A stretch of 64,000 nucleotides of DNA. It comes from Octopus vulgaris (taxonomy: Eukaryota). Positions 2,997 to 58,537 of the stretch are shown here, in pieces. Under the pieces are notes generated by a model that was not told the DNA's origin, searched no databases, and saw only the letters and a program-made list of their open reading frames with translations. Made by a program: the position numbers and the translations under genes. How positions within the stretch are numbered: the first letter of the stretch is position 1; every line of letters begins with the position of its first letter. The stretch spans positions 1,426,001 to 1,490,000 of the forward strand of contig OX597843.1 in assembly GCA_951406725.2 (NCBI GenBank). The letters run 5' to 3'.

Positions 2997-3135
2997 CAGC
3001 GATCAATGATGGCTTTCACACAGCTACGGTCCTTCAGTTTACCCAAAGACAACACGGCGCTCTCTCTTACTATTCGATCCTTGTCCTGGAGCATTGGAAG
3101 TATCTTCTCTGCAGTTTCTCTCTTTGATCCTTTAC
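2997..3135 (-). CDS. TIR-HEAT gene, coding exon 6 (HEAT-like repeat)
   Basis: Acceptor ggcag, donor GTAGGT, 139 nt, phase 1 to 2. ILPMLQDKDRIVRESAVLSLGKL fits the HEAT consensus. Confidence 0.88.
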
Positions 3136-5574
3136 CTGCCAACAATCAATGAGGGGTGGTCATGGCACAATAAGGAAAACAACAACAACAACAACAATAA
3201 TAATAATAATGATTTAAAATTTTGGTACAAGGTCAGCAATTCTGAGGGGGTAGTGAAATTGATTACGTTGACCCCAGTACTTTACTGGTACTTTATTTTA
3301 TTGACCCCGAAAGGATGAAAAGCAAAACTGACTTTGGTGGAATTTGAACTCAGAATATAAAGATGGAGGAAATGCTACTAGGCTCAGGTGTGGCAGTGTG
3401 GTAAGAAGTTTGCTTCCCAACCACATGGTTCCGGGTTCAGTCCCACTCGGTGACACCTTGGGTGAGTGTCTACTATAGCCTCAGACCGACCAAAGCTTTG
3501 TGAGTGGATTTGGTAGACAGAAACTGTTTATCTTTAGAATGACATTGTCGGGTAGGTGTGAGAGGCAGGATCTGGCCTTGTTTTGAATGAATCAGGCATT
3601 ATCTTATAGCTTTGAGGTTTCAATGATGTGACCGTTTATTTTTAGAATGACATTGTAGGGTAGGTGTGAGAGGCTGGATCTGGCCTTGTTTTGAATTAAT
3701 CATGCATTATCTCATAGCTTTGAAATTTCAATGATGTGATTGTTTATTTCTAGAATGACATTGTAGGGTAGGTGTGAGAGGCAGGATCTGGCCTTGTTTT
3801 GAATTAATCATGCATTATCTCATAGCTTTGAAATTTCAATGATGTGATTGTTTATTTCTAGAATGACATTATAGGGTAGGTGTGAGAGGCTGGATCTGGC
3901 CTTGTTTTGAATTAATCATGCATCATCTCATAGCTTTGAAATTTTAATGATGCGATTGTTTATTTCTAGAATGAGATTGTAGGGTAGGTGTGAGAGGCTG
4001 GATCTGGCCTTGTTTTGAATTAATCATGCATTATCTCATAGCTTTGAGATTTCAATGATGTGATTGTTTATTTCTAGAATGACATTGTAGGGTAGGTGTG
4101 AGAGGCAGGATCTGGCCTTGTTTTGAATTAATCATGCATTATCTCATAGCTTTGAGATTTCAATGATGTGATTGTTTATTTTTAGAATGACATTGTAGGG
4201 TAGGTGTGAGAGGCTGGATCTGGCCTTGTTTTCAATTAATCATGCATTATCTCATAGCTTTGAGATTTCAATGATGCGATTGTTTATTTCTAGAATGACA
4301 TTGTAGGGTAGGTGTGAGAGGCAGGATCTGGTCTTGTTTTGAATTAATCCTGCATTATCTCATAGCTTTGAAATTTCAATGATGCAATTATTTATTTTTA
4401 GAATGACATTGTAGGGTAGGTGTGAGAGGCTGGATCTGGCCTTGTTTTGAATTAATCATGCATTATCTCATAGCTTTGAGATTTCAATGATGCGATTGTT
4501 TATTTCTAGAATGACATTGTAGGGTAGGTGTGAGAGGCAGGATCTGGCCTTGTTTTGAATTAATCCTGCATTATCTCATAGCTTTGAGATTTCAATGATG
4601 CGATTGTTTATTTCTAGAATGACATTGTAGGGTAGGTGTGAGAGGCAGGATCTGGCCTTGTTTTGAATTAATCCTGCATTATCTCATAGCTTTGAGATTT
4701 CAATGATGCGATTGTTTATTTCTAGAATGACATTGTAGGGTAGGTGTGAGAGGCAGGATCTGGCCTTGTTTTGAATTAATCATGCATTATCTCATAGCTT
4801 TGAAATTTCAATGATGTGATTGTTTATTTTTAGAATGACATTGTAGGGTAGGTGTGAGAGGCTGGATCTGGCCTTGTTTTGAATTAATCATGCATTATCT
4901 CATAGCTTTGAGATTTCAATGATGTGATTGTTTATTTTTAGAATGACATTGTAGGGTAGGTGTGAGAGGCTGGATCTGGCCTTGTTTTGAATTAATCATG
5001 CATTATCTCATAGCTTTGAAATTTCAATGATGTGATTGTTTATTTTTAGAATGACATTGTAGGGTAGGTGTGAGAGGCTGGATCTGGCCTTGTTTTCAAT
5101 TAATCATGCATTATCTCATAGCTTTGAAATTTCAATGATGTGATTGTTTATTTTTAGAATGACATTGTAGGGTGAGGTTAGATCTAGTTGATTCGTGTAA
5201 AAAAACAGGGAGATTATTTTGACTGGATATGGCCAGTTTAAATGTTAAAGCATCATCCAGTGTACTCCTAGATACACTGTGACTAAATAAAAATTAGTTC
5301 ATATCTTACGTTCTACTGGGAGTTTGGTGTTATACAAAATGTGGCAAAAAATAGAATTTAAGAGTGAACTTACCTGCTTTGGCCAGGGCGATGGTAGCAA
5401 CAGCACGAATATTTGGGTCAGATTCATGTAACATATCTTCCAGAAAGTGTAAAACAGCAGGTGAGGAATAGGAACCTGAGAAGAAGAGGCAAATGTAATC
5501 TATTTATTTATTTATTTATTTATTGGCAGACAGACAGACAGATTGATAGATAAAGACAGAGATAGATACATAGG

Positions 5575-5639
<65 letters not shown>

Positions 5640-5695
5640 TAATAGATAGATAGATAGATACACAGATAGATAGATAGATAGATAGATAGATACAC

Positions 5696-5749
<54 letters not shown>

Positions 5750-5775
5750 ATACACAGATAGATAGATAGATACAC

Positions 5776-5826
<51 letters not shown>

Positions 5827-6444
5827 TAGATAGATAGATAGATAGATGATAGATAGATAGACACATAGATAGATAGATGATAGATAGATAGACACATAGA
5901 TAGATAGATGATAGATAGATAGACACATAGATAGATGGATAGATAAACAGACAGACAGACAGAGAAAGACAAACATAGAAGATAGACAGACAGATATAGA
6001 AAGATAGATAGATAGATAAACAGATAGATAGAAAGATAGATAGATAGACAGACAGGCAAGCAGGCAGACAGGCAGATAGAGAGAAAGATAGATGGATAGA
6101 TAGATAGATAGATGGATAGATAGATTAATAGATAGATAGATAGATAGATAGTTATGTTTCTTTATTAGCTACACAGGGCTGCCCAAAGACGGGACAAATT
6201 ACAAGGTAGAGCTTTTCTTTTGGGGATAAAAAAGGGGGTTTGGTTTTTGATCAAAAGGGATCGTTATCACAGAAATGTCAATGGATAGGTAGATAGATAG
6301 ATAGACATACAGACATACATATAGACAGGCAGGCAGACAGACAGAGAGAAAGATAGATGGATAGATAGATAGATAGATAGATAGATATATATATATAGAT
6401 AGATAGAGAGATGGATAGATAGATAGATAGTCAGACAGATATAT

Positions 6445-6479
<35 letters not shown>

Positions 6480-8950
6480 TAGATAGATAGAGAGATATAT
6501 AGGCAGATAGATAGACAGGCAGACAGACAGATAGCTAGATAGAAAACAAGGTTCAACCAAATTAATGTACCTCCCACCCCCCACCTCTAATTTCAATTTA
6601 ATTAGATAACTGAATCAAATGCTTAAACAACTAAGGAATGGCTGAAATATTTAATGAATTGAAAACGAAAACCCATGTTCACTCTATCAATCAGTAGTTT
6701 GTGAAACCACAACTGAAAGTATTCAGTTGCTTGTTCAGCTCAACACATATTGCTTTGGTGGAGGCACATGGCCTAGTGGTTAGAGCAGCGGACTCGCGGT
6801 CGAGGGATTGCGGGTTCGAATCTCAGACCGGGTGGTGTGTGTGTTTATGAGCAAAAACACCTAAGCTCCACGCGGCTCTGGCAGAAGGTAATGGCGAAAC
6901 TTCTGCTGACTCTTTCGCCACAACTTTCTCTCACTCTTTCGTCCTGCATCTTGCAGCTCACCTGTGATGGACCGGCGTCCCGTCCAGGTGAGGAACCTAT
7001 ACGCCAAGGAAACAGGCCCTTATGAGCCAGGCATGGCTTGAGAAGGAACAAACAAACAAATGTTTATTTGCGTGAGTGTTTCCTTGTGTGTGTTTGTCTA
7101 TGTGAATGTTTCTTTGTGGAGGCACATGGCCTAGTGGTTAGAGCAGCGAACTCACGGTCGAGGGATTGCGGGTTCGAATCTCAGACCGGGTGTGCGTGTG
7201 TGTGTGCATGTATATATATACATACACACACAGCAGTGTAAAAGTGTGAAATGGCAAACAACTGGTGTCAGTTTAGATTATGGAACATATACATTTAAAC
7301 ATAATTGCTGAGTTGTTACAATAGAGTACATCATAAGACACAGGGAAGTAAGAAGGTATGTAGATAGTCCCCTACAGCTGTTTCAAGAATAGATGCACAT
7401 GTAATTACAAAATTTGCCCACTCACCGAGATTTTCAATAGCGGTCAATCGATGTTGGCTGTCCATGTTGAATACTTGTTTCATGGCATGGTAGCCCACAG
7501 CATACTGTTGTAGTTTGTTATAGAATGATTCCGAATCTCCGTTCTCATTCTGACAGAACTGATTGAAAACCTCTCGGTCCAGTTTCTGCTCGCAGTGAAA
7601 TATATCCCGAAAAATCATATTGATGAAGAATGCGAGCTTGCTGTAAGAATACTTCGATGAAATCTGTTCTTCGTAGTCTACAAGGAAACACTGTTTGAAG
7701 ATGTCCCAACTGATGCTGGTCTCAGAGGGGAAGTGGCGGTCCCAGAAGTTAGAATCCACTTCTAGATCGCTGTGGCAATCCGAGTCATCCGAATCGGTAT
7801 CATCTTTGTAAGTCTTCATCACTGTACTCTCTTTAATCACAGAGTTCTGTCGAAAAAGTGTGGCAAACTTGCTAGAATTTGGTGAGTTTGATGAAGATTT
7901 TGTAAAGCAGCGCATTGGAGCGATCTTGTACATGTCAGCCTTGATGCTGCCAATAAGGATTTTGAACTTCTTGTCAAAGTTGTCGCTCTTACCAAAGAAG
8001 CACCAGTTCAACTTTGACAGCATCAGTTTCCTGTTCAAAGACAAAAATTGGGATCACCATCATTAATTATGAAAAAGACAGTGGGCTGTCAGTATTGTAA
8101 GGACAACAGACAAAGTGCTGATAAGCAGTTTGTCAGTCTGCACATTCTGAGTTCAAATTCCACCAGGGCTGACTTTGCCTTTCATCCTTTTGGGGTCAAT
8201 AAAATAAGTACCCATTGAACAAGGGCAGAGGAGACAATTAACTTAAACCTTTACTCTTTTACTCTTTTACTTGTTTCATTCATTTGACTGTGGCCATGCT
8301 GGAGCACCGCCTTTAATCGAGCAACTTGACCCCGGGACTTATTCTTTTGTAAGCCCAGTACTTATTCTATCGGTCTCTTTTGCCGAACCGCTAAGTTACA
8401 GGGACCTAAACACACCAGCATCGGTTATCAAGCAATGTTAGGGAGACAAACACAGACACACAAACATATACATATATATATATATATATATATACATATA
8501 CACGACAGGCTTCTTTCAGTTTCCGTCTACCAAATCCACTCACAAGGCTTTGGTCGGCCCGAGGCTATAGTAGAAGACACTTGCCCAAGGTGCCACCAGT
8601 GGGACTGAACCCGGAACCATGTGGTTGGTAGACAAGCTACTTACCACACAGCCACTCCTCTCAAAAACTGCTGGCTTAATGCTAAAATTTGAAACCATTA
8701 TTATTATTAATGATGATGATGATGATGATGATAACAATCCTTCTTATTACAGGCACAAGACCTGAGATTTGTGGGAAGGGGTTAAGTCGATCACATCGAC
8801 CCCAGTACTCAACTGGTACTTAATTTGTCGACTCTGAAAGGATGAAAGGCAACGTTGTCCTTGGCAGAATTTGAACTCAGAATGTAGTGATGGGTGAAAT
8901 ACCACTATGCATTTTGTCTGGTGTTCTAACAATTCTGCCAGCTCACCACC

Positions 8951-9001
<51 letters not shown>

Positions 9002-11077
9002 GTCCTTTCTACTAAAGGCACAAGGTATGAAATTTTGGCGAAGGAACCTGTTGAGTACATCAACTCCACTGTTTCACTGATACTTAATTTGTCAACCCCG
9101 AAAGGGTGTGAAAGGTTGAGTCAACCTCGGCGGAATTTGAACTCAGAATGTAGCAATAGGTGAAATACTGCTAAGTATTTTGTCCAACATGCTAACGATT
9201 CTGCCAGCTCACCCCCTCACCACTACCACTACCACCAACTGCCTCTCAAGCTTCTTTGATAACGTCCAGGTTTCTGAGCCATATAGTAGAACTGGTTCGA
9301 CTGTGGCTTTGAAGATTTTAAGTCTGAAATCTCTACTTAGATTTGATGACCAGATCTTATGCATGTCATAATGAACTGACGCAGGACCGTCGTGCATGGG
9401 CTGCCATGGTTCGAGATGCCTCGAGGGTGGTAGAAGAAGCCGACTCAACCCGCCCAGGGTGAATGTCGCCACAAGTACAAGTACGGTACTTAACTGGTAC
9501 TTAATTTTACCAAACCTATAAGGACGAAATCTAAGTTGATCTAGATTTGATTTATTAAATAAAAGTGTAGCTGTGTGATTGTTTTGCAACCACATGGTTC
9601 CAGGTTTAGTCCCACTGTGTGGCACCTTGGGTGTCTTTGACCAAAGCCTTGTGACTTGATTTGGTAGTGTGGTAAGAAGCTTGCTTCCCAACTACATGGT
9701 TCCTGGTTCAGTCCCACTGCGTGGCACCTTGGGTGACTTCTACTACAGTCTTGTGACTTGATTTGGTAGTGTGGTAAGAAGCTTGCTTCCCAACCACATG
9801 GTTCCTGGTTCAGTCCCACTGCGTGGCTCTTTGGGCAAGTGTCTTCTACTATAGCCTCGGGCCAACCAAAGCCTTGTGAGTGAATCTGGCAGATAGAATC
9901 TGAAAGAAGCACATTGTGTGTGTGTGTGTGTGTGTCTGTTTTTGTGTTGTGCCCAATCACTACGTGACAACCAGTGCTGGTTTGTTTACAACCCTATAAC
10001 TTAGCAGTTCAGCGAAAAGAGACTGACAGAATATGCACTGGAGTCAGTTTCTTGGACTAAACCCTTCGATGTGGTGCCACAGCATGGTTAGAAGTCCAAT
10101 GACTGAAACAGGTAAAGAGATAGAAAGAAAATAACATAAGTGAGTAGTATACTTACATTCCTGAGTTGAGGTGGTCACCAAGTTCTTTGAAATTGTCGAT
10201 ACGAGCCACAGGAATGATTATAGAATTGGTAACGTAGGCCAAGGCCAGTTCATTCTGGCAGGTTACGTTCTCAATGGAATCCAAAGACAGAACCATCAGA
10301 AAGATCTAGAATGAGAAAAAATAAAATCCACGGACAATTAATATAATAAAGGTGAAGGTAATTAAAAAATCAATTAATGGGAATGATTGATGGAAGACAG
10401 GAAATTATTCAAATATTTCTGTTGTTCTTGTTTACACTATTTGATATGTCCCTCCTACCTTGTTGCTGTTTAGCCCCAGGTCAGTCCTCATCCAGCAGAC
10501 CTATGATCAAAGATGTTCCAGATGTGACCATCCAGTGTTTTATTCTGACATAGTGTATCTAGGACTACATTATCTAATGTGTCCTTGTGTGGAGGCACGT
10601 GGCCTAGTGGTTAGAGCAGTGGACTTGCATGTTCGAATCTCAGACCAGTGGTTTTCAAACAGAGTTCTGCCAGTACAGTCCAGGTGTTCCGCAAGAAGTT
10701 ACAAAACTGCTAAAATCGGCAGTAATTTTTAATTCTCCTGTGCAGATATGTGTGCATAAAACTATTAAATTATTACACTGGGGTTCCTCGAGCCAGTGGA
10801 ATGTTTCCTTGGAGTTCCGCTCCAGCAAAAAGTTTGAAAAGCACTGTCTCAGACTGAGTGATTTGTGTGTTTATGAGCGAAAACACCTAAGCTCCACGCG
10901 GCTCCAGCAGAAGGTAATGGCGAACTTCTGCTGACTCTTTCGCCACAACTTTCTTTCGTTGTTTCCTCCTGCATCTTGCAGCTTACTTGCGACGGACCGG
11001 CGTCCCGTCCAGGTGGGGAACCTATACGTCAAGGAAACCGGGAAACCAGCCCTTATGAGCCAGGCATGGCTTCAGAA

Positions 11078-11140
<63 letters not shown>

Positions 11141-12335
11141 ACTTATAAGTAAGGGCTAAAGAAAATTATTTCAAAGCCAATATGCTGATAACAGACTATT
11201 AAATCATCAATTTCCACATATAATCTACTCGCTACAGCAAAAAAATCAAAGAACTGAAGTTGGGCAAGCTGGCCGTTAGAATTTTTAAAATTCGTTACTG
11301 GGGTACTTAAATGTACTCATGTTTTTTGCTTCGGCTTTTTCCATAGGCGCATGTAAGTATCTTATTTATATTCTCTCGTAAGCTCTACTGAAGAGGAATA
11401 AATCTTTTATGAGATTATTTCCGAAATTGATTCAATATAGAGATAACGAATTTTAAAAATTCTAATGGCCAGCTTGCCCGACTTCAGTTCTTTGATTTTT
11501 TTTGCTATAGCGAGTAGATTATATGTGGAAATTGACGATTCAATAGTTTGTTATCAGCATATTGGCTTTGAAATAATTTTCTTTAGCCCTTACTTATAAG
11601 TTGTTTATAATTTTAACCGTAAAGGTATTTTAATATGCTGCCACATTTCTTGATGGAATTTTTTTCTGTAAAGAAAAAAACTTCATCCTATATTAGTAGT
11701 ATATATATACATATAATATGTCCTTGGCTATAAATACTTAGGTACACACCCAGTAGTATATTGGATATTTAATATCCTTTAGATGGATTCTTGACCTCTA
11801 ACTCTTACAGAAATAAATAAACAAGTAAAAAAAACAAAGGAAAAAGAAAGAAGATATCTCACCTTTGATTTAACTACAGCCTGGCCACGTTGTGAAGTTG
11901 AATACTCAACAGTGGAGTAAATAGAGCTGGGAAGCTTGTCGTACCAAACTTTCCAGTCATATGGTTTCAATTCAGCTGCAAAAGAGATGGCAACAAGAAT
12001 TAGTCAGAGACAGTAAAAGCTGTTTGTTATTCTTTTCTACTCTAGACACAAGGCCTGAACTTTTGGGGGACGGTGCCAGTTGATTAGATCGACCCCAGTA
12101 CGCATCTGGCACTTAATTATCTGGATCTTTTCGGTTTGAACAGCAGCTTTTTTAAACTAATTTCCACGCAGGAGTGGCTGTGTGGTAAGTAGCTTGCTAA
12201 CCAACCACATGGTTCTGGGTTCAGTCCCACTGCGTGGCATCTTGGGCAAGTGTCTTCTGCTATAGCCCCGTGCCGACCAATGCCTTGTGAGTGGATTTGG
12301 TAGACGGAAACTGAAAGAAGCCTGTCGTATAGATG

Positions 12336-12366
<31 letters not shown>

Positions 12367-14681
12367 TTGTGTGTCTGGTGTCTTCTGCTATAGCCCCGGG
12401 ACGACCAATGCCTTGTGAGTGGATTTGGTAGACGGAAACTGAAAGAAGCCTGTCGTATATATGTATATATATATATAAGTGTGTGTGTATATGTTTGTGT
12501 GTCTGTGTTTGTGTGTCTGTGTTTGTTCCCCTAGCATTGCTTCACAACCGATGCTGGTGTGTTTACGTCCCCATCAGTGGTTCGGCAAAAGAGACCGATA
12601 GAATAAGTACTGGGCTTACAAAGAATAAGACCCGGGGTCGAGTTGCTCGACTAAAGGCGGTGCTCCAGCAAGGCTGCAGTCAAATGACTGAAACAAGTAA
12701 AAGAGTAAAAGAGTAAAGAGAGTAACTAAACACTTTTAAACTTCGTATTCTGGTAGAATGTGTCAAAATAAAACATCTTTTTCTCTTGGCTTTATTGAGA
12801 AAATTCTATAGTTTGTAAGATATTTGTTGTTTTTTTTCTTCAATTTCTGCAATTTCAACCAATCAATGACGTCTATTGAGGTAAAAAAACCTTCTGTGCC
12901 GTATGAATATGTCCCTCGCTTGGATCTTTTCGGTTTGAACGGCAGTTTTTCAAAATAATTTCCACGTAACTAAACACTTTTAAACTTCGTATACCGGTAG
13001 AATGTGTTTATAAAACATCTTTTTCTCTTGGCTTTATTGAGAAAATTCTATAGTTTGTAAGATATTTGTTGATTTTTTTCTTCTATTTCTGCAATTTCAA
13101 CCAATCAATGACGTCTATTGAGGTAAAAAAAACCCTTCTGTACCGTATGAATATGTCCCTCGTTTAAGAAACAGATTGGGTTTATTTACATTTGTTAAGA
13201 AAAATAAGATACCCTTCCCCCACCCCTAAAAGAGATTGAAATGCAATAGATCAATACTAGGGGTCATAATTATGGGTGACAATTTCATATGACACCGCTA
13301 GAAAAATCTGCTGTTCAAACAGAAAAGATCCCAGTTAAGCAGTGGGGTTGATGTAATTGACTGTCCCCCGCCCCACAAAATTTCAAGCCTCATGCCTATA
13401 ATAGAAAGGATTATTATCACAGATAATATTATCAAATGGATGTTGGCTTCAAATTTTGGCACAAGGCCAGCAATTTCAAGAGAGGGAATCAGTTCATTAC
13501 ATCATCCCCAATGATCCATTGTTACTCACTTTATTGACCTCGAAAGGGATGAAAATCAAAGTCATCCTCAGCAGAATTCGAACTCAGAATGCAGAGATGG
13601 ATGAAATATCACTAAGCATTCTACTCAACATATTAATGATCCTGCCAGCTCGCCACCCCTTAATGTTATCGAATGGATATTATGATCAGTGTTAGGAGTG
13701 TGTAAGGCAGTGAACCGGCGGAACCGTTAGCACATCGGACTAAAGGCTTTGTGGCATTTCTTCAGGTTTTGAGTTCAAACCTGACTCAAAGTTAACTTTG
13801 CCTTTTGTTCTTTTGAGGTCAACAAATTAGGTACCAGCTGAGAAACGGAGAGGGGGGGGGTCAATATAATCAGCTAGCCCCCAAAATTCCAAGCCTTGTG
13901 CTTAATGTAGAAGGAAGCATGTGGAGTTTGTGACAACTGGGAACAAGAGAGAGAGAGGGAGTGAAAGAGATACTGAAAGGCCTTACCAGCTGGTTACAGA
14001 AATAATAATAATAATAATAAAAATAGATGCGCCCTTTTAAAGCCTAGTCAGGCTCATGGGCCCGGTTTCCCGGTTTCAATGGCGTATGTGTTCCCCAGCT
14101 GGACGGGATGCCAGTCCATTGCAGCGTTACTCATTTTTGCCAGCTGAGTGAACTGGAGCAATGTGGAATGAAGTGTTTTGCTCAAGAACACAACGCGTCG
14201 CCCGGTCCAGGAATTGAAACCACAATCTTACGATCATGGAGCTGACACCCTAATAACTAAGCCATGTGCCTCCACAATAATAATAATAATCATCATCATC
14301 ATTGTTTAGCGTCCGTTTTCCATGCTAGCATGGGTTGGACGGTTCAACTGGGGTCTGGGAAGCCAGAAGGCTGCACCAGGCCCAGTCTGATCTGGCAATG
14401 TTTCTACGGCTGGATGCCCTTCCTAACGCCAACCACTCCATGAGTGTAGTTAATAATCCTTTCAACTGGGGGTAAAAGGCCTAACATTTGTGGAGAGGGG
14501 ACTGGATGATTACACTGACTCCAGTGTGAAACTGGCACTAAATTATCGACCCCAAAAGGATGAAAGGCAAAGTCGACCTCAGCAGAATTTGAACTCAGAA
14601 TGCAGCAGCAGGCAAAGTACTGCAAAGCATTTTGTCCAGTGTGCTAATGATCCTGCCAACTCACAGCCTTATTATTATTAC

Positions 14682-14718
<37 letters not shown>

Positions 14719-15593
14719 GAGTGAGAGAGCAGTGCATGCCATCAAAGCGACACTGGGGTAAAATATACGAAGCCCAGTATATCCATCATGACTACACGTC
14801 TGATAAGGGTACACCAGGCACATGCATCATAACCATATGTGCACATGGTGATCTCATATCAAGATAAACAGCACATGACCTTGCAGGTGGGGCCCAGATA
14901 GAATTTTCTTCCTGTCGAGTAACCCATCCTGCTCAAAAGGTCCCTGAGTAAGGGTTGTTTAAGGATGTTGAACGAACCACTCATGTTTCCAGAGGTGAAT
15001 TATTCAAGCCCCAAAGAATCCCTCTCAACACATGGCTATGATACTCCCCCACTACTTCTGCTCGTGATAAGAGATGCACATATCGTCAGCCACTAAGGGA
15101 CATGCTCAACTGGTTAAGGTCAAACAATTGATAAGCAAATCTGTGGTATTGAGCAGAATATTTGCTGTAAAACCCATCTTTCATACCAAGACAAAACAAT
15201 GTACATGATAACACTTCCAATCAGTTAAGATCAGAAGCCATGAGAGCCACTGCCTGGTACTGCATCAGGGCATTTATTATTATTATTGTTTTTTTTTTCC
15301 TCTTCTTTCAAATTTGCTTCCATTTCTTGCCGAGTGTCTTCTTGACTCCTAGGGCAAAGAAACTCATTGTATACATTGGTAGGCCATTAAACTAAACTCA
15401 CTAGTTCATTCATTTTTTTCTTTTTTAAAGTTATTATTATTATTGTTATTATTATTATCATTATTATTATCATTATTATTATTATTATTATTAGCAGCAG
15501 TAGTAGTATGAAATTAATAAAATACTCACCAGCTAGTCTTTCCACAAAGGGAAAGTCTTTTATATCATAACTAATCACGATTTCTGGATCCAT
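2997..15593 (-). CDS. Spliced gene for a TIR-domain / HEAT-repeat protein (6 coding exons seen, about 390 aa, 3' end unresolved)
   Basis: Exons 15530-15593, 11863-11975, 10157-10305, 7426-8030, 5374-5475 and 2997-3135 all have GT-AG boundaries and matching phases. They join into one ORF: MDPEIVISYDIKDFPFVERLAAELKPYDWKVWYDK...IFLMVLSLDSIENVTCQNELALAYVTNSIIIPV...HRLTAIENLGSYSSPAVLHFLEDMLHESDPNIRAVATIALAKAGKGSKRETAEKILPMLQDKDRIVRESAVLSLGKLKDRSCVKAIIDR. Confidence 0.88.
3527..5172 (+). repeat. 108-bp tandem satellite, about 15 copies
   Basis: TAGAATGACATTGTAGGGTAGGTGTGAGAGGC recurs at 3535, 3643, 3751, 3859 and onward. Confidence 0.95.
5374..5475 (-). CDS. TIR-HEAT gene, coding exon 5 (HEAT-like repeat)
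   Basis: Acceptor ttctcag, donor GTAAGT, 102 nt, phase 1 to 1. LEDMLHESDPNIRAVATIALAK fits the HEAT consensus L..LL.D....VR..A..AL. Confidence 0.9.
5522..6541. repeat. (GATA/GACA)n microsatellite block
   Basis: Direct reading. Similar blocks at 24050-24780, 38900-39450 and 54740-55015. Confidence 0.95.
6759..7050 (+). mobile_element. SINE family C (GGAGGCACATGGCCTAGTGG tRNA-derived head)
   Basis: A box TGGCCTAGTGG, B box GGTTCGAATC, (AAAC)n tail. Also at 7117-7190 and about 10590-11080. Confidence 0.85.
7426..8030 (-). CDS. TIR-HEAT gene, coding exon 4 (end of TIR, Ser/Asp-rich linker, helical domain)
   Basis: Lies inside the complex-sequence ORF 7331..8044. Acceptor aacag, donor GTGAGT, 605 nt, phase 2 to 1. 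Confidence 0.9.
9236..9370 (-). mobile_element. Short RTE-like LINE fragment
   Basis: MHKIWSSNLSRDFRLKIFKATVEPVLLYGSETWTLSKKLERQL. Confidence 0.75.
10157..10305 (-). CDS. TIR-HEAT gene, coding exon 3 (IFLMVLSLDSIENVTCQNELALAYVTNSIIIPV...)
   Basis: Acceptor ttctag, donor GTAAGT, 149 nt, phase 0 to 2. Carries the TIR betaC-alphaC (CxxEL) and betaD (IIPV) motifs. Absent from the ORF track. Confidence 0.9.
11137..11604. repeat. Long inverted repeat (arms about 160 bp, spacer about 145 bp)
   Basis: 11137-11297 is the near-perfect reverse complement of 11444-11604. Confidence 0.92.
11383..11442 (+). ncRNA. Type I hammerhead ribozyme-like motif
   Basis: CTCTA-CTGAAGA-GGAATAAATCTT/ttat/GAGATTATTTCC-GAAA-TTG/att/CAA-TA-TAGAG: conserved core plus three pairable stems. 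Confidence 0.75.
11863..11975 (-). CDS. TIR-HEAT gene, coding exon 2 (ELKPYDWKVWYDK...AVVKSK)
   Basis: Acceptor tttgcag, donor GTGAGA, 113 nt, phase 1 to 0. 'KVWYD' matches the TIR betaB motif. Confidence 0.88.
12123..13331 (-). mobile_element. GG-TIR MITE (partial plus full copy) interrupted by a SINE at about 12166-12722
   Basis: TIRs at 12123, 12922 and 13331. The MITE sequence resumes after the SINE tail. Confidence 0.75.
15530..15593 (-). CDS. TIR-HEAT gene, first coding exon (MDPEIVISYDIKDFPFVERLA)
   Basis: ATG with an in-frame TGA two codons upstream. The acceptor (tttcag) at 15612-15613 implies an upstream 5'UTR exon. Donor is GTGAGT. 'IVISY' matches the TIR betaA (F/I-SY) motif. 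Confidence 0.85.
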
Positions 15594-16739
15594 GTTTCAC
15601 AATGTACAATCCTGAAATGAATGAAAGGGGTAGAATTTAATTAAACGTCTCGTTAACATCACCATCATCATCATCATCATCATCGTATATTTCTTTTACC
15701 CGTTTCAGTCATTAGACTGCAGACATGTTGGAGTACCATTTTGATGAATTTTAACTAAATGAAGCAACCCCAGTATTTATTTTTCAAGCCTGACATTTAT
15801 TCCATTGTCTCTTTTGCCAAACCACTGAGTTACAGGGACATAAACACACCAACACCGGTTGTCAAGCAGTAATGAGGGATAAACACAGATACAAAGACGC
15901 ACGCAAATATATATCATTGTCATGACCAATGCCAGTGCCGCCTAATTGGCAACCGTTATAAGAATATTAAATCTACCCCAGTATTTCACTGGTACTATAT
16001 TTTATCAGCCCTAGTGGTATAAAATGTAACAATTCCATTCACATCTAGAATGTTCTTGAGCAATATCAAATCAACCCCAGGATACATTATCTAAGATGCT
16101 TGATAGGAATATTAAATCCACCCAGTATGTCACTGGTACTTTATTTTATCAACCCCAGAAGGATGAAAGGTAAAGTTAATTTTAATGCTCTGTGATATAT
16201 GGTCATGGTTGGAGACAAGAAATGTCACTGAATAGAAATACATGGGTGACACAAGCCAATGTTGGGGGAAAAGCTGACCCCCCAGCATGGTGGTTCAAAG
16301 GGATAGAAATAGCAGCTAAATTTCCCTCAAATTATCACCACCACTGACTTTAATATGTAAGACACACTGGATAATGTGGTGTTAGATAGACTGAGTTAAA
16401 GATGGGATGGTCATGGCTGGAAAGCCTTTATTTGATCGTAGATCTGACAAGTCATTACTGACCCAGGGTTTGTTAACTGTAGCAGCAGCAGCAGTGACAA
16501 TACCTATTTCTTTATTACCCACAAGGGGCTAAACATAGAGGGGACAAACAACCACAGACATAGGTATTAAGTCGATTACATCGACCCCAGTGTGTAACTG
16601 GTACTTAATTTATCAACCCCGAAAGGATGAAAGGCAAAGTCGACCTCGGCGGAATTTGAACTCAGAACGTAACGGCAGCCGAAATACCGCTAAGCATTTC
16701 GCCTGGCGTGCTAACGATTCTGCCAGCTCGCCGCCACAA

Positions 16740-18380
16740 GAGCAGTGGCATCGGCAGTTGTAACCGATAGCAACATCAAAAGCAATAGTAACAACAGCAC
16801 CAGAGATAGCAACAACAATAATGAGTGGCAATAGCAATAGAGACAGCAGCAATAGCAGTTGCAATAGCAACAACAGTTGCAGTAGCAATGACAGTTGCGA
16901 TAGCAACAACAGCGGCAATTGCAACAACAGTGGTGATAGCAACGACCACAGAGTAACGGCAGCAACACCAACAACCACCGCAATAGCAACAACAGCAGCA
17001 ACAATAGCAACAGTGACAGCAATAATTGCAACAACAGCAGTAGCAATAGTGGTCACAATGACAGCAATAGCAACAACAACAACAGCAATAGCAGCAAGAA
17101 GTGCAATAGGTGCAACAGCAGCAATAGCAACAACAACAGCAATAGCAGCAAGAAGTGCAATAGGTGCAACAGCAGCAATAGCAGCAAGAAGTGCAATAAG
17201 TGCAACAGCAGCAATAGCAACAACAACAACAACAGCAGCAAGAAGTGCAATAGGTGCAACAGCAGCAATAGCAACAACAACAACAGCAGCAAGAAGTGCA
17301 ATAAGTGCAACAGCAGCAATAGCAACAACAACAACAGCAATAGCAGGAAGAAGTGCAATAGGTGCAACAGCAGCAATAGCAACAACAACAACAGCAATAG
17401 CAGGAAGGAGTGCAATAGGTGCAACAGCAGCAATAGCAACAACAACAACAGCAAGAAGTGCAATAGGTGCAACAGCAGCAATAGCAACAACAACAACAGC
17501 AAAGAAGTGCAATAGGTGCAACAGCAGCAATAGCAACAACAACAACAGCAATAGCAGAAAGAAGTGCAATAGGTGCAACAGCAGCAATAGCAACAACAAC
17601 AACAGCAGCAAGAAGTGCAATAAGTGCAACAGCAGCAATAGCAACAACAACAACAGCAGCAAGAAGTGCAATAGGTGCAACAGCAGCAATAGCAACAACA
17701 ACAACAGCAATAGCAGGAAGGAGTGCAATAGGTGCAACAGCAGCAATAGCAACAACAACAACAGCAGCAAGAAGTGCAATAAGTGCAACAGCAGCAATAG
17801 CAACAACAACAACAGCAATAGCAGGAAGAAGTGCAATAGGTGCAACAGCAGCAATAGCAACAACAACAACAGCAATAGCAGGAAGGAGTGCAATAGGTGC
17901 AACAGCAGCAATAGCAACAACAACAACAACAACAGCAATAGCAGCAAGAAGTGCAATAGGTGCAACAGCAGCAATAGCAACAACAACAACAACAACAGCA
18001 AGAGGTGCAATAGGTGCAACAGCAGCAATAGCAACAACAACAACAGCAATAGCAGGAAGAAGTGCAATAGGTGCAACAGCAGCAATAGCAACAACAACAA
18101 CAGCAATAGCAGGAAGGAGTGCAATAGGTGCAACAGCAGCAATAGCAACAACAACAACAGCAGCAAGAAGTGCAATAAGTGCAACAGCAGCAATAGCAAC
18201 AACAACAACAGCAATAGCAGGAAGGAGTGCAATAGGTGCAACAGCAGCAATAGCAACAACAACAACAACAACAACAGCAATAGCAGCAAGAAGTGCAATA
18301 GGTGCAACAACAACAACAGCAAGAGGTGCAATAGGTGCAACAGCAGCAATAGCAACAACAGGAAGAATAGGAACAAGACA
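16740..18380. repeat. Compound (CAA/CAG/TAG) microsatellite grown into a ~45-60 bp minisatellite
   Basis: The unit AAGAAGTGCAATAGGTGCAACAGCAGCAATAGCAACAACAACAAC repeats more than 20 times from about 17095. Confidence 0.95.
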
Positions 18381-18499
18381 AACATCATGAATGGCATTTA
18401 GTTGTGAACATTCACAGATAAAAACTGTGTCAACATAACAAAAATGCCTTTTCTAACATTAGGCTGGCGTTTTAGTTAATTACTGTTAATTAAAAACAG

Positions 18500-27004: not shown

Positions 27005-27410
27005 TTTATCGTCATTGCTCAGGTCTTCGGTTGTCCACCCGTGCATTTGCGCCAGCTGGGAAGTGGAGGTGGGAGGAGGAGGACATCGCGAATCAGCTCA
27101 CCCCCTGGACGCCGGGCCACATGACCAAACCACCTTAAGCGCCGTTGTAAAAGCACCGAAGGGAGGGGCCGGAGATTCAGGCAATGACGAAGACCAGCTG
27201 TAGGGACCGGATCACTGCGTCGGCAGCGAAGAATGTGGCGGAGACAGTCATTGTCGAACACCTCCAGCCTTCGCTGACCAACTACCCTCATAGGCCATGT
27301 TTCGCAACCATACAGGAGGATAGTACGAAAGACGGCCTGGTAGATTCGCCCTTTGGTCACCGAGGAGACCTCTCTTCTGTCCCAGAGGCACCGCTCGAGG
27401 TGCACGAATG
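27005..27410 (-). mobile_element. RTE-like LINE fragment (post-RT region)
   Basis: TKGRIYQAVFRTILLYGCETWP...LEVFDNDCLRHIL...QRRLRWFGHVARR is the typical RTE/L2 C-terminal motif set. Confidence 0.85.
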
Positions 27411-27849
27411 TGGACCTGGGCTGTATGTTGTGTTCTTGAGCAAGGCACTTCATGTGCGTTGTGTTCTTGAGCAGCGGTGGTGCCCCACTGGTGGTGCCCC
27501 AGCATGGCCGCGGCCTTCGGGCTGAAACATTTTTAAGGATTTAAGGCACTTCATTTCTCATTGCTCCAGTTCACTCAATTGTAGAAATGAGTAGTGATAT
27601 CACTGGGCCTTTGCCTTTCCCTTGGATAACATCAGTAGCATGAAGAGGGGAGGCTGGTATGGATGGGTGACTGCTGGTCTTCCATAAACAACCTTGCCCA
27701 GACTTGTGCCTCAGATGGGAACTTTCAAGGTGCAATCCCATGGTCATTTATGACCAAAGGGGTCTTTACCCCTTCACCCATATTTGACAGATTTATCTGA
27801 ATGCTAAAGGGTCAAAGTGATTTCTTTTGTACCATAAAACCATTTACCA

Positions 27850-51773: not shown

Positions 51774-53566
51774 TACATATATACGATGGGCTTCTTTCAG
51801 TTTCCGTCTACCAAATCCACTCACAAGTCTTTGGTCGGCCTGAGGCTATAGTAGAAGACACTTGCCCAAGTGCCACTCAGTGGGACTGAACCCGGAACCA
51901 AGTGGTTGGTAAGCAAGCTACTTACCACACAGCCACTCCTGCACCTAAATAATTCCCAAATTTATTTCATGCTCTTTCTTTCACTTGCTCTACTATACTG
52001 TTATTGTTTAGTCCTGTTGCTATTCTGATGATCAAAGTTCTTCCAACTTTGATAGTCACGTCCTTTATTCAGACTTAGTGTATCTTGGAATACATTATCA
52101 TTGTTGATTAGCCTCTAGTAGACCTATGATCAAAAATGTTCCAGATCTAACCATCATGTCTATTATTCAAATATAGTGTGTGTGTGCATATATATATATA
52201 TACTTTATTTAAAGCAGCAGAAAATTCAACAAAACCTGTTACTCTGAGTTTCCCGTTGCCGTTCATCGGACAGTTTTTGCTTTTTTCCACCTTGTTTCAC
52301 ATTTATGTGTTTACTCCGGTATATATATATATACATACATATATGGTTGGTTGGTTGGTTGGCATCCTTTTTGTCTCGGGAGACAATGGAGTTGCGCATA
52401 AAATAGTCTAGTCCGGATTTTACATTTCATGTCCTGATACATTTCCTGCTGTGGCTGTGTACTCCTATCCTGGACAAACACTCCCTCTGGCAGGTACTGC
52501 AAATGTAGTGAAGACTTCCTGGCTGGTTGTAATGTCATAGTTTCTTGTTGAAGTCTTTTCTTGTCTTTCCATTTCTCCTCTCTCTGTCACTCCTTTGTAT
52601 TCCCTCTTTTACGGTACATCGCCAATCTCCACGGTTGCTGGCAACTGCTTCCCAATTGCTAATATTGATGTTGCAGGCCTTCATATCCCTTTTGCAAACA
52701 TCCTTGTAACGTAAGAACGGTCTTCCCACAGACCTAGTACCCCTAGCAAGCTCTCCGTAGAGTATGTCCTTGGGAATTCTGCCATCTTTCATACGGCTAA
52801 CATGCCTAAGCCATCTCATACGTCTTTGTGTGAGGAGTGCAAACATGCTTGGTATTCCTGCTTGCCTGAGGACATCTTTGTTGGGGATATGATTCTGCCA
52901 TTTGATGCGGAGGATTTTCCGGAGGCAGCGCAGGTGAAAGATGTTTAGGCGACATATCTATTTATATATACATATATATATATATTTGAGTAATTTAATG
53001 AATTATCTTATTAAGGATAATTCGAAAGATAACCGATACCTGGGTAGCAAATTCACATCAGAAAGAACACGGTTGAAGCTACGTCCCTAGGGCATAGACT
53101 ACGTGTCTTCATGCGGGAAATTTGTATGTTTATTTTAAAATTATAAGTATATGAAAGAATGGAGTTGAACGACTAGTTAACAAATATCCTTTATTCTCAA
53201 CATATGTTTCGAAGGCTGCATATTCCTAATTCCGAAGGAATAAGGAGTACATTATGCAGATTTCTCATCAGGAAAATCAAGGAACTTATGTCGACATCAA
53301 AATGCACAAAAACCTTTAGCTGACCACTCTCAAGGAGCCCATGGTGATAATGGCTCATTATCGCCATGGGCTCCTTGAGAGTGGTCAACTAAAGGTTTTT
53401 GTGCATTTTGATGTCGACATAAGTTCCTTGATTTTCCTGATGAAAATCTGCATAATGTACTCCTTATTCCTTCGGAATTAGGAATATGCAGCCTTCGAAA
53501 CATATGTTGAGAATAAAGGATATTTGTTAACTAGTCGTTCAACTCCATTCTTTCATATACTTATAA

Positions 53567-53610
<44 letters not shown>

Positions 53611-54874
53611 TGCAACAGGATTCTTTCCGTTTCTGTCTACCGAATCTACTCACATGGCTTTGGTCAGCTCAAGACTATAGTAGAAGACTCTTGCATAAAG
53701 TGCTATACAATGGATTGAACCAGGAGCCATGTGGTTGGGAAGCAAGCTTCTTACCACGCAGTCAACTTTACCTTTTTTTTAAATCATTCTTAATTTCTGT
53801 TTATTCCAGATGACCCAGGAGCGTTTACAGGAAATATTCGGGGTCAAAGGTCACATAACCAACTGTAACCTCAAATACACCAAAGATGGTATTTTCCGCA
53901 AGTTTGCGTTTATTGGATACCAAAAGGCTGAAGATTGTACAGAAGCCATAAAATATTTCAATAAAACTTTCGTTGATACCTCCAAGATACAGGTAAGAGG
54001 AAAATATCAAAAGGTAGTTGAGCTACAGAGGCATTGATTTGGATAAATTGGTGTGGCTGTTTGGATGCAGGTGGTGCTGGTGATTGGTCATGGCTGGTTA
54101 TACATTCAGACATTCAAGCTGTCTTGGTGACAGTATATTTTTGGCACTGGAGTCAAACCATCCAACCCAAGCCATCATGGTAAGCAGACGTTCAGTGGTG
54201 ATGATGAAGATATATATATATATACATTGCTTATATGTGAAACATGTATATAAATATATATTGTACCTGTATTTCAAAGGGGTCAGTCTTGTCATATTCT
54301 GTGTCATGTTGAATCTCCCTGAGAACTACATTAAGGGCACATGTATGTGGAGTGCTCAGTGGTCAGTCAGACTCCTGTATTTGTTTATCTTCATCTCCTC
54401 TTCATTATGGGTAGCGATGCCTGGGTGTGTGGCTGATGCAGCGAGGCTGGGGAATGTGTCTATGACCATGTTACTTTCCCTCAGTGGAGTATTGAAAGAT
54501 GAAGATCTGTTTGCGACAGTGAAAAAGGGCATGTTTATATCTGTAACAACTTCCATTTTCCAGGTAGAGCCTGCTTACGACCTAGGGGATGCAAACAAGC
54601 CAAGATCCTGGAGTAAGTACTCTGCAGAAAGTTCCAATTATATTTACAAGGAAAAGAGCAAACCTAAATCGGATCCTGAAAAAAATGAAACCGACAGCAA
54701 AAACAAGGTACTTACACCTGTGTTTGCATGTGTCTGTGTGTATCTCTCTATATCTCTCTCTCTCTCCATCTATCTATCTATCTCTGTCTTTCTATCTATC
54801 TCTCTACCTATCTATCTCTATCTGTCTTTCTATCTATCTCTATCTGTCTATCTATCTACCTCTATCTACCTATC

Positions 54875-54910
<36 letters not shown>

Positions 54911-56496
54911 CCTATCTATCTCTATCTGTCTTTCTATCTATCTCTCTACCTATCTATCTATCTATCTATCTCTCTACCTCTCCATCTATCTATCTCTATC
55001 TATCTCTCTATCTATCTTCACTCTCAGTCTGTCTCTACACTATCTCTCACACTTATTTCTCTTTTTCTCTTTCCAGACCCACAAAAAGAACAAAGATGAA
55101 AAAATGAAAGAACTCCTTGGTGATGTGAGTAGAATCTTTTTTTTTTGTCATTGCCATTTGTATTTATGCCGGTGGCACGTAAAAAGCACCCACTACACTC
55201 ACGGAGTGGTTGGCGTTAGGAAGGTCATCCAGCTGTAGAAACACTGCCAGATCTGACTGGCCTGGTGCAGCCTCCTGGCTTCCCAGACCCCGGTTGAACC
55301 ATCCAACCCGTGCTAGCACGGAAAACGGACGTTAAACGATGATGATGAGGAGGAGGTAGTGAGGTAAAAAGCACCCACTACACTCACGGAGTGGTTGGCG
55401 TTAGGAAGGGCATCCAGCTGTAGAAACACTGCCAGATCAGACTGGAGCCTGGTGCAGCCTTCTGGCTTCCCAGACCCCGGTTGAACCGTCCAACCCGTGC
55501 TAGCATGGAAAACGGACGTTAAACGATGATGATGATGATGATATGTGGTGTGCAAGAGAGATGACTGCACTGGTATGGCCATGTGATGCATATGGATGGA
55601 GACAGCTGTGTAAAGAAGTGCCAATCTCTAACTGTGGAGGAAACCTGTGGTAGAGGTAGACCCAGGACAAGGTGGCGAAACATGATCTTCGAATATTGGG
55701 CCTCACAGAGGTGATGGCAAATGACCGAGACCTTTGGCGATAATGCCGTGCTTGAGAAGACTCATCAAGTGAAGTGCAATCATAGTCGTGGCTGATGCTG
55801 GTTCCACATAACAGACATCTGTGCCGGTGGCACGTAAAGAGCACACATTACACTCTTGGAGTAGCTTGGTGTTGGGAAACGAGATCCAGCCATAGAAACC
55901 GTGCCAAATCATACTGGAACTTGGTGTTCCAGTCAAGCCATCCAACCCATACCAGCTTGATAAGCAGAAGCTAAATGATGATTTATTTTTAATATACACG
56001 ATAGAGGCAATACTGAATTAAAATAGCAATCCATATACTATACCGAATGTTTAAATGTATATACACTGTTGATAGGCCGAATACTACAGTATTTACATTA
56101 TTTGCATTGGATGGATATGTGTCCTGACTTTCTTTGTTGTTACCACGATGTTTCAGCTGGTGTACTCTCCAGCCTTCATCAGGTGTCCTGGTGGAATTTT
56201 GAACCCAAGGTGGCGAGCTGGCAGAAACATTAGCACGGTAGGTGAAATGCCTAGCGGTATTTCGTCTGCCGTTAGGTTGTGAGTTCAAATTCCACTGAGG
56301 TCGACTTTGCCTTTCATCCTTTCGGGGGTCGATAAAATTAAGTACCAGTTATGCACTGGGGTCGATGTAATCGACTTAATACCTATGTCTGTCCTTGTTT
56401 GTCCACTCTATGTTTAGCCCCTTGTGGGTAATAAAGAAATAGGAATTTTGAACCCAACCCTTTATTTGACTAATGGGGTAGTAGTAGTAGTAGTAA

Positions 56497-56529
<33 letters not shown>

Positions 56530-58494
56530 GCAGCAATAGTGCGCCCAATACATTTAAGTTTTTTGGTCCTTTTCAATGACTGAAACTTTAGCCAGACATA
56601 TTTTGACACAAGAATTCATCTCTTCTGATACTTTTTCTGTTTTTAACACAGCTTAACCATTAAGCAAAATAAGCACATACTTAAAGCATCGAGGGAAGAG
56701 TGTGGGGTGGGGCACCAAAGAAATGGTAAATGGTTTACAACACAAAAGAAATCACTTTAACCCTTCAGTATTCAGATTACTCTGCCAAATGTAAAGCCTA
56801 TTTATTCACCTTATTTTGAATTTATCCTGCATTATCTTGTAGCCTTGAGATTTCAACGATGCGATTATTTACTTTTGGACTGACACTTTAGGGTAGGTAT
56901 GAAAAGCTGGATCTAGCCAGTTTGACCATAAAACAGATAGAATATTTTATCTGAATATGGCTGGCTTAAATGCTAATGAGTTAAACTTGCTAAAATAATG
57001 ATAGTGTGGAGGCACGTGGCCTAGTCGTTAGAGCAGCGGACTCGCGGTTGAGGGATCGCGGGTTTGAATCTCAGACCGGGCGATGTTTGTGTTTATGAGT
57101 GAAAACACCTAAGCTCCATGCGGCTCCAGCAGAAGGTAATGGCGAAACTTCTGCTGACTCTTTCTTCACAACTTTCTCTCACTCTTTCCTCCTGCATCTC
57201 GCAGCTCATCTGCGACAGACCGGCGTCCCATCCAGGTGGGGAACATCTACGCCAAGGAAACCGGGAAACCGGCCCTTATGAGCCAAGCATGGCTCAAGAA
57301 GGAACATTGTGGAGGCACATGGCCTAGTGGTTAGAGCAGTGGACTCGCGGTCGAGGGATCGCAGGTTCGAATCTCAGACCGAGCGATGTGTGTGTTTATG
57401 AGCGAAATACCTAAGCTCCACGCGGCTCCAGCAGAAAGTAATGGTGAACGTCTGCTGACTCTTTCGCCACAACTTTCTCTCACTCTTTCCTCCTGCATCT
57501 TGCAGCTCACCTGCGACGGACCGGCGTCCCATCCAGGTGGGAAACCTATACGCCAAGAAACCGGGAAACCAGCCTTTATGAGCCTGGCATGGCTCAAGAA
57601 GGAACAGTGTGGAGGCACATGGCCTAGTGGTTAGAGCAGTGGACTCGCGGTCGAGGGATCGCGGGTTTGAACCTCAGACCGGACGATGTGTGTGTTTATG
57701 AGCGAAATACCTAAGCTCCACGCGGATCCGGCAGAAGGTAATGGCGAAACTTCTGCTGACTCTTTCGCCACAACTTTCTCTCACTCTTTCCTCCTGCATC
57801 TTGCAGCTCACCTGCGACGGACTGGCGTCCCGTCCCGGTGGGGGAACCTATATGCCAAGAAACCAGGAAACCGGCCCTTATGAACCAGGCATGGCTCGAG
57901 AAGGTACAAACAACAACAAAATAATGATAGTGGTGTTGATGTTTGTGATGATGGTGATGATGATGACAGTTATTATTATGGGAATGATGGTGATGATGAT
58001 GATGATAAACCAGACAAGAGATTATGTCTGTCATTAATTATTTAGTCATTTACCATTTTTGTTCTTTCTCTTTTATTCAGCTTTATGAGAATTCTGAGTT
58101 TTTGGAATTCCTGGAAGCGCACAAGTTGTCTGGAAAAGGGGCCAAGAATATGTGGAGCAACGACACAATAGAATTCCTTAAGAAGTCATTCGATTCACAG
58201 AACAAGAACAAAGGAACAGCTGAAGCATCTGAGGTTGTCTTTGATGATTCTGGTAATGAATCAGCAGATGATGAATACGAAACCATGGCTAAAAATAGTA
58301 AGCCTCTACTATGTCTTTCTTCCATCTTTCATGTCTGCAAAACAAATCACTTTTCTCAGTTTTTTCTTCTATATAAGCACAGGCATGGCATGGCACTTTG
58401 AACTACTCTGTTCTACTATCGTCTCAGGTTAACAAAGGAATTATATGTGGACATGGTTGAAAGAAAGTGAAGAGGCTTTTAGTGTGTATGTGTA

Positions 58495-58537
<43 letters not shown>

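Follow-up and report, generated by a model that had tools for sequence, protein, structure and literature searches.

Does a predicted TIR protein of the octopus, in which helical repeats follow the TIR domain along one chain, cleave nicotinamide adenine dinucleotide (NAD+) like SARM1, or does it work mainly by binding other proteins? This question is raised by a minus-strand gene whose coding exons occupy positions 2997 to 15593 of a 64,000-nucleotide stretch of the Octopus vulgaris genome (contig OX597843.1; G000:C30:1426001-1490000 in our coordinates, hereafter the window). A preliminary description, made from the DNA letters, had read the locus as a hidden gene for a protein with SARM1-like parts in reverse order and a TIR effector. 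We find that the six exons in the window belong to a real, spliced and already annotated gene, and sequence comparison places its product in the invertebrate family ecTIR-DC 11. Judged from its active-site residues, this copy probably acts by binding proteins, as a scaffold or regulator, and cleaves NAD+ weakly or not at all, a reading to which we assign a probability of roughly 0.55.

Gene structure and domain layout

The six exons in the window are all on the minus strand. Exon 1 (15530..15593, residues 1-21) encodes TIR betaA-alphaA, including the IVISY motif; exon 2 (11863..11975, residues 22-59) encodes betaB with Asp34, a BB loop without the Gly motif, and alphaB; and exon 3 (10157..10305, residues 60-108) encodes betaC and alphaC, with Thr74 at the Trp position, Glu78 and the invariant L81, Y83 and P91. 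The end of the TIR domain, a disordered Ser/Asp linker (148-199), an EF-hand-like domain (~200-296) and the start of the HEAT region all derive from exon 4 (7426..8030, residues 109-310), and one further HEAT repeat each from exon 5 (5374..5475, residues 311-344; DPNIR) and exon 6 (2997..3135, residues 345-390; DRIVR). Exon 7 lies outside the window (G000:C30:1424198-1424335), ~1,670 bases to the left of its first base, and encodes the last 46 residues (391-436), which contain a WRND motif and the terminal helix.

As the preliminary description had proposed, these exons are in phase: exons 1 to 6 each carry a GT donor, exons 2 to 6 an AG acceptor, the phases agree (1,0,2,1,1,2) and the chain forms 390 stop-free codons. 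Its product is identical to residues 1-390 of a 436-residue O. vulgaris protein (P0001, uncharacterised LOC115226206), which an exon 4 query also retrieved at 100% identity in a protein search, and whose cluster includes records from O. sinensis and O. bimaculoides. The gene is mostly invisible in a track of open reading frames, but it was not hidden from annotation, since a gene model exists. Splicing was checked in contigs of public runs over exons 2-4 (the status of these runs as RNA is the search tool's guess): introns 2 (1557 bases) and 3 (2126 bases) are skipped exactly, with CT..AC ends, by one contig per run in four of four runs from four studies. Indirect support for the later junctions comes from a run contig whose length fits exons 5, 6 and 7 plus a 3' untranslated region of 495 nucleotides that would end 8 bases from the first base of an AATAAA; this fit leaves ~173 nucleotides for upstream non-coding exon(s). 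The coding sequence is preceded by an acceptor at 15611 and, close before the ATG, by an in-frame stop; the protein is therefore not extended N-terminally, and another, non-coding exon lies upstream. A chance chain of exons is thus ruled out by the annotated protein, the spliced contigs and 30 full-length relatives. One O. bimaculoides record (P0043) has a gene model that ends at residue 390, where exon 6 ends, so it is without the last exon.

Pfam places TIR_2 at residues 5-134 (48.2 bits, E 1.9e-12; cut-off 28) and HEAT_2 C-terminal to it (61 bits; cut-off 27.7), within a HEAT region of ~297-412. No SAM, death or leucine-rich repeat (LRR) family was found in a Pfam scan of 13 proteins (SAM in 0 of 13 at E<=0.05). 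Inspection of hydropathy (highest 19-residue value, 1.15) and of the N-terminus, which is TIR strand A in the structural model, gave no membrane helix and no apparent signal peptide, in each case without a dedicated predictor. The earlier view that the protein has no transmembrane, LRR, death or SAM domain and is not a Toll-like receptor (TLR), MyD88 or SARM1 is upheld.

An AlphaFold2 model built on a 30-row alignment, with a mean predicted local distance difference test score (pLDDT) of 77.8 and a predicted template modelling score (pTM) of 0.63, is laid out as TIR (3-148), disordered linker (148-199), helical domain (200-296), helical repeats (300-410) and terminal helix (413-435). The TIR fold is confirmed by matches to the SARM1 TIR (Z 16.2, root-mean-square deviation (rmsd) 2.5 over 127 residues), RPS4/RRS1 (15.8), TIR-1 (15.7), MyD88 (15.0) and MAL (14.4), the first four tied within about 1 Z. 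The repeats match best to alphaRep and CpcE/F-type HEAT proteins (Z 15.8-19), on which sequence and Foldseek searches agree. HEAT-like repeats had been recognised from the DNA, but their number is ~4 once exon 7 is included, not 2-3; they are two-helix units with the D-x-x-[IV]-R motif, as in alphaRep and CpcE-CpcF PBS-lyase HEAT proteins, from which the octopus family differs in its WRND motif and conserved terminal helix. The linker is as acidic as described (8 Asp and 4 Ser in the 22 residues 181-202). In several HEAT structural matches the aligned region starts at model residues 82-86, a hint that TIR alphaC and the HEAT solenoid are neighbours in the model. The ESM Atlas gave no usable match for the middle domain, and only leads below 0.9 for the whole protein.

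What had been described as a helical segment is present at 200-296 but is likely a Cbl-type pair of EF-hand-like units, which the first reading missed. Folded alone as a 110-residue segment, the domain forms an EF-hand-like pair (pLDDT 84.6). The first 22 Foldseek matches listed were all Cbl or Cbl-b (best E 0.07); by VIA, Cbl was also best (Z 7.0, rmsd 3.6, 86 residues), followed by calmodulin (Z 5.6); 14 of 14 matches in a PDB sequence search were Cbl-b (best E 0.14); and a PDB profile search gave E 0.0017. Pfam Cbl_N2 scored 14-19.5 bits against a cut-off of 22 (E 0.0016-0.07, the lowest in Pecten). Shared features with the EF-hand of the Cbl/Cbl-b tyrosine-kinase-binding region are the starting motif FW-x5-6-[IV]-x-W-x-x-F and two helix-loop-helix units. 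The match is weak in every single test, though ranked first each time, and it is the agreement of the tests that makes the assignment likely; against it, the octopus protein has no match to the Cbl four-helix bundle or SH2 domain. Its loops also lack the DxDxD/G..E ligands: by eye, no canonical Ca2+-binding loop was seen in 21 rows, and some rows of paralogue B (introduced below) have acidic loops without the full pattern, so direct calcium sensing is unlikely. This EF-hand-like resemblance was not found in the published literature covered, which did not include the text of Gerdol et al. 2017.

An invertebrate family and its two paralogues

Architecture mapping recovered full-length relatives with the same layout in 30 of 33 hits, from cephalopods, bivalves, gastropods, a chiton, annelids, a brachiopod, a bryozoan, an echinoderm, amphioxus and Trichoplax. 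Of 147 new representatives from a profile search, 39 had all three domains, and 37 were retained once two fragments had been removed; taxonomic assignments cover 20 of these 37, hence no claim of absence is made for vertebrates, arthropods, nematodes or cnidarians. Named additions include Ciona, Glandiceps, Tubulanus, Geodia, Intoshia and the choanoflagellate Salpingoeca urceolata, and a homologue in the last of these suggests that the family has pre-animal roots. A choanoflagellate homologue was not found in print in the literature searched. Another 13 of the 147 profile rows (P0111, P0120, P0121, P0131, P0147 and others) are proteins of 900-2300 residues with four to seven related TIRs and no HEAT, likely another family sharing the same TIR type.

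The octopus protein is 34% identical to TrispH2_006850 of Trichoplax over 435 residues (E 4e-84), and by sequence it is the orthologue of that protein. In PMC6321704 Fig. S1, which follows Gerdol et al. 2017, TrispH2_006850 and its neighbour TrispH2_006851 carry the label ecTIR-DC 11 and are depicted with a TIR and an Armadillo domain. Because the Trichoplax orthologue was published under this label, the architecture is already known and named, and the idea that it was new does not hold. The two proteins share an N-terminal TIR, a C-terminal ARM/HEAT fold and no membrane helix; the figure shows no EF-hand-like domain. Nor are these SARM1 parts in reverse order. SARM1 and TIR-1 (ARM-SAM-SAM-TIR) do resemble the octopus protein in having a TIR fold, the alphaC Glu and a helical-repeat domain in one chain, but they contain SAM domains and a C-terminal TIR, whereas the octopus TIR is N-terminal; the missing SAM and the short alphaRep/PBS-lyase-type repeats rule out a reversed SARM1. 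Trichoplax also has a separate Sarm1-like gene, ecTIR-DC 3 (PMC6321704 Fig. S1).

Could such a protein simply be an alternative TLR adaptor, like MyD88 or MAL, whose HEAT repeats do a death domain's job of recruiting downstream factors? In the portions of these papers that were available, ecTIR-DC families are described as widespread in invertebrates, mostly uncharacterised and hypothesised to be adaptors (PMC6321704, PMC5549309, PMC6836662, PMC8662601, PMC10279657), and ecTIR-DC 11 transcripts are reported as high in mussel gill together with MyD88 and STING (PMC5549309). The fold matches to MyD88 and MAL given above would fit such a role. However, the mussel passage leaves the paralogue unspecified, the family's TIR resembles enzymatic TIRs more closely in sequence than it does TLR adaptors, and the family is present in a choanoflagellate and in Trichoplax, which, in the part of PMC6321704 consulted, is without true TLRs. 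A plain adaptor role is therefore very unlikely in our estimation.

Sequence trees indicate that the family consists of two old paralogues, A and B, both present in Octopus and Trichoplax. In a 30-row IQ-TREE analysis, which came with a long-branch warning, 22 rows formed A (the window gene and TrispH2_006850) and 8 formed B (TrispH2_006851), with support 100/100. A quick tree, also of 30 rows, with more distant members gave A an SH-like approximate likelihood ratio test (SH-aLRT) value of 99 and B one of 87, and placed the Geodia and Salpingoeca proteins beside A (support 89). Octopus paralogue B (P0083; G000:C1:152902317-152924789, minus strand; 430 residues, nine coding exons found) is 29% identical to the window protein, and by-eye comparison of the alignment indicates that five of six coding introns are common in place and phase. 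The two genes do not adjoin as they do in Trichoplax: no second paralogue was found in the window or in the 80 kb to its left. The B protein starts with MG-x-x-x-S, as do many members outside A, and the window protein does not; we take this motif to be a myristoylation-type start. Met-Gly by itself opens the sequence in 18 of the 34 rows outside A and in 5 of the 21 within it. An N-terminal lipid anchor on the window protein itself is ruled out by its MDPE start and the in-frame stop upstream.

Conservation within subfamily A is uneven: identity is 61% in HEAT, 46% in the TIR and 19% in the linker, and L81, Y83, P91, L111, L113, W118 and W391-R-N-D are invariant. A slowly evolving HEAT part and a pre-animal origin would suit a housekeeping or signalling role outside immunity (for example in calcium/cyclic ADP-ribose (cADPR) or ciliary functions) for an old holozoan gene that merely has a TIR domain. 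So would the gene numbers, as exon 4 (A-type) has a single match in the Octopus genome, B a single locus, and the trees show no expansions of the immune-receptor type, bar extra decayed copies in some gastropods. Almost every TIR protein characterised so far, though, is known to work in immunity or cell death, and the EF-hand loops are without the canonical ligands that a calcium role would call for; we consider a non-immune role highly improbable.

Heterobranch gastropods have fast-evolving copies with long N-terminal extensions (P0095, P0119, P0136, P0139, P0141, P0150) in which the Glu has mostly become Leu or Gln, a separate loss of the site. P0117, P0127 and P0130, from metagenome records, form a divergent clade of odd composition outside both animal paralogues; they carry the full enzyme motif and are possibly from unicellular eukaryotes.

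The active site and a possible division of labour

The two paralogues differ at the catalytic site, where, as read from the alignments, the motif is decayed in A and kept in B. An aromatic residue (W/Y/F) at the Trp position is found in 0 of 22 A rows, which have Q, A, H, T or R instead, vs 7 of 8 B rows (Tyr); the betaB Asp occurs in 1 of 22 vs 6 of 7, and the alphaC Glu in 19 of 22 vs 7 of 8. The three A rows without Glu are the window protein's two closest relatives, which have Asp, and a bryozoan, which has His. All seven B rows that cover the BB loop have xGxx[F/V]L, whereas this loop (35-51) is unconserved in A and, in the window protein, contains no Gly and falls below pLDDT 50 at 39-46. 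B rows read W-V-D, xGxxFL and Y/F-C-x-D-E. In a wider set, the three residue marks counted above (aromatic, betaB Asp and Glu) occur together in 0 of 21 A rows vs 21 of 34 others, the remaining 13 including further decayed lineages (the Salpingoeca pair and the heterobranch gastropod copies).

Structure-database searches follow the same division. The Trichoplax B TIR alone aligns with Cat1, Roq1, BtTir, TIR-1 and AbTir in the PDB (best E 0.001), whereas the window TIR alone found no TIR match in the same sequence search. B aligns with Cat1, AbTir, BtTir and Roq1 through W-V-D, the BB-loop Gly and (S)xY/F-C-x-D-E-L; A lacks the aromatic and the BB-loop pattern, and its Thr74 stands at the position of SARM1 W638. 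According to the accessible text of bioRxiv 10.1101/2022.05.07.491051, this residue (W204 in AbTir) stacks on NAD+ mimetics and is needed for cyclisation, its loss lowers activity, and the BB loop must be intact for activity. With its full enzyme motif, paralogue B is the likelier of the two to be a genuine TIR enzyme.

The proposal that the window protein itself is an NAD+ hydrolase effector, which its own HEAT solenoid keeps inactive until a ligand frees it, in the manner of SARM1 or of bacterial TIR-HEAT defence proteins, has points in its favour, and several of them weigh directly against a blunted A. The alphaC Glu named in the preliminary description is present (E78), as are D34 and S8-Y9, and the window protein is the sole A row with the betaB Asp; the W[VI]D test applied to the wider set misses its W-Y-D. 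AbTir W204A and E208D have lowered activity but keep some of it, and the aromatic is less conserved in TIRs that make linear ADPR (same source), so ADPR could still be made by A, at a lower rate. The retention of Glu in 19 of 22 A rows, from placozoan to mollusc, suggests selection on this residue. The fold match to the SARM1 TIR and the hint of alphaC beside the solenoid are also consistent with such an effector. Against this stand the missing aromatic in all 22 A rows and the missing BB-loop Gly motif, the change from Glu to Asp in the two closest relatives, the absence of SAM or another known oligomerising domain from the Pfam scan, and a model pTM of only 0.63. A TIR survey, in the part available to us, cuts both ways: of 61 animal TIRs with the Glu, 12 showed activity in E. 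coli, among them one depicted with an ARM domain, which favours the proposal, but the other 49 did not, so that Glu alone predicts little (bioRxiv 10.64898/2026.04.20.719644). An effector role for this paralogue is thus doubtful, and we rate it rather unlikely.

The scaffold or regulator reading is preferred because binding surfaces seem to be kept in A while the catalytic pocket seems to have drifted. In this reading, B retains the ancestral form, which would have been an NADase or cADPR maker that is activated by assembly, carries an EF-hand/HEAT binding module and is often lipid-anchored. The long helix 278-296 continues without a break into the first repeat, so the EF-hand-like domain and the HEAT solenoid may form one rigid binding platform. 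As no part of the protein is better conserved than HEAT, this platform may recognise a cellular partner that is itself conserved. The flexible acidic linker would tether the TIR, a family-specific surface of which (alphaC LALAY, MKLMLxKxNW) could mediate TIR-TIR or TIR-HEAT contacts. Paralogue A would then tune or relay a B-type signal without executing it. A bolder version, by analogy to paired plant TIR receptors, is an enzyme/pseudoenzyme pair conserved from placozoans to octopus, with choanoflagellate roots, in which B is a membrane-anchored NADase/cADPR synthase gated by EF-hand/HEAT and a blunted A co-assembles with, restrains or triggers it; we regard this as quite improbable.

With the gene annotated and the family named, the locus offers no new architecture. 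Rather, a small two-copy TIR family of pre-animal origin gains a three-domain anatomy and the prediction that B is active and A blunted. A natural active/decayed pair in one genome would test what beyond Glu makes an animal TIR an enzyme, and interest in animal TIR enzymes other than SARM1 is current, as in the survey cited above; a member of this family may already have been assayed there. Neither a functional study of the family nor the A/B split and its active-site difference was found in the literature searched, which did not extend to Gerdol et al. 2017 or to Table S4 of the survey, and a full-text search with six accession strings of the family matched no papers.

Neighbouring features in the window

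A second spliced gene, on the plus strand at 53810-62000, lies head to head with the TIR gene. Its exon near 53810 encodes an RRM_1 domain (Pfam E 3e-8), and further exon-like frames occur near 54600, 58050-58350 and 61870; we presume from the resemblance that it is akin to RBM19. Intron 5 of the TIR gene contains a tandem array at 3530-5170 with a unit of ~120 bases and, by eye, over a dozen copies. Minus-strand frames at 9209-9691, 27019-27540 and 52535-52957 look by eye like C-terminal remnants of the reverse transcriptase of a long interspersed nuclear element; for the first, Pfam gave only DUF6451 at E 0.009. A low-complexity array of (GCA/ACA/ATA)-rich units at 16760-18400 produces spurious frames of 440-590 residues on both strands.

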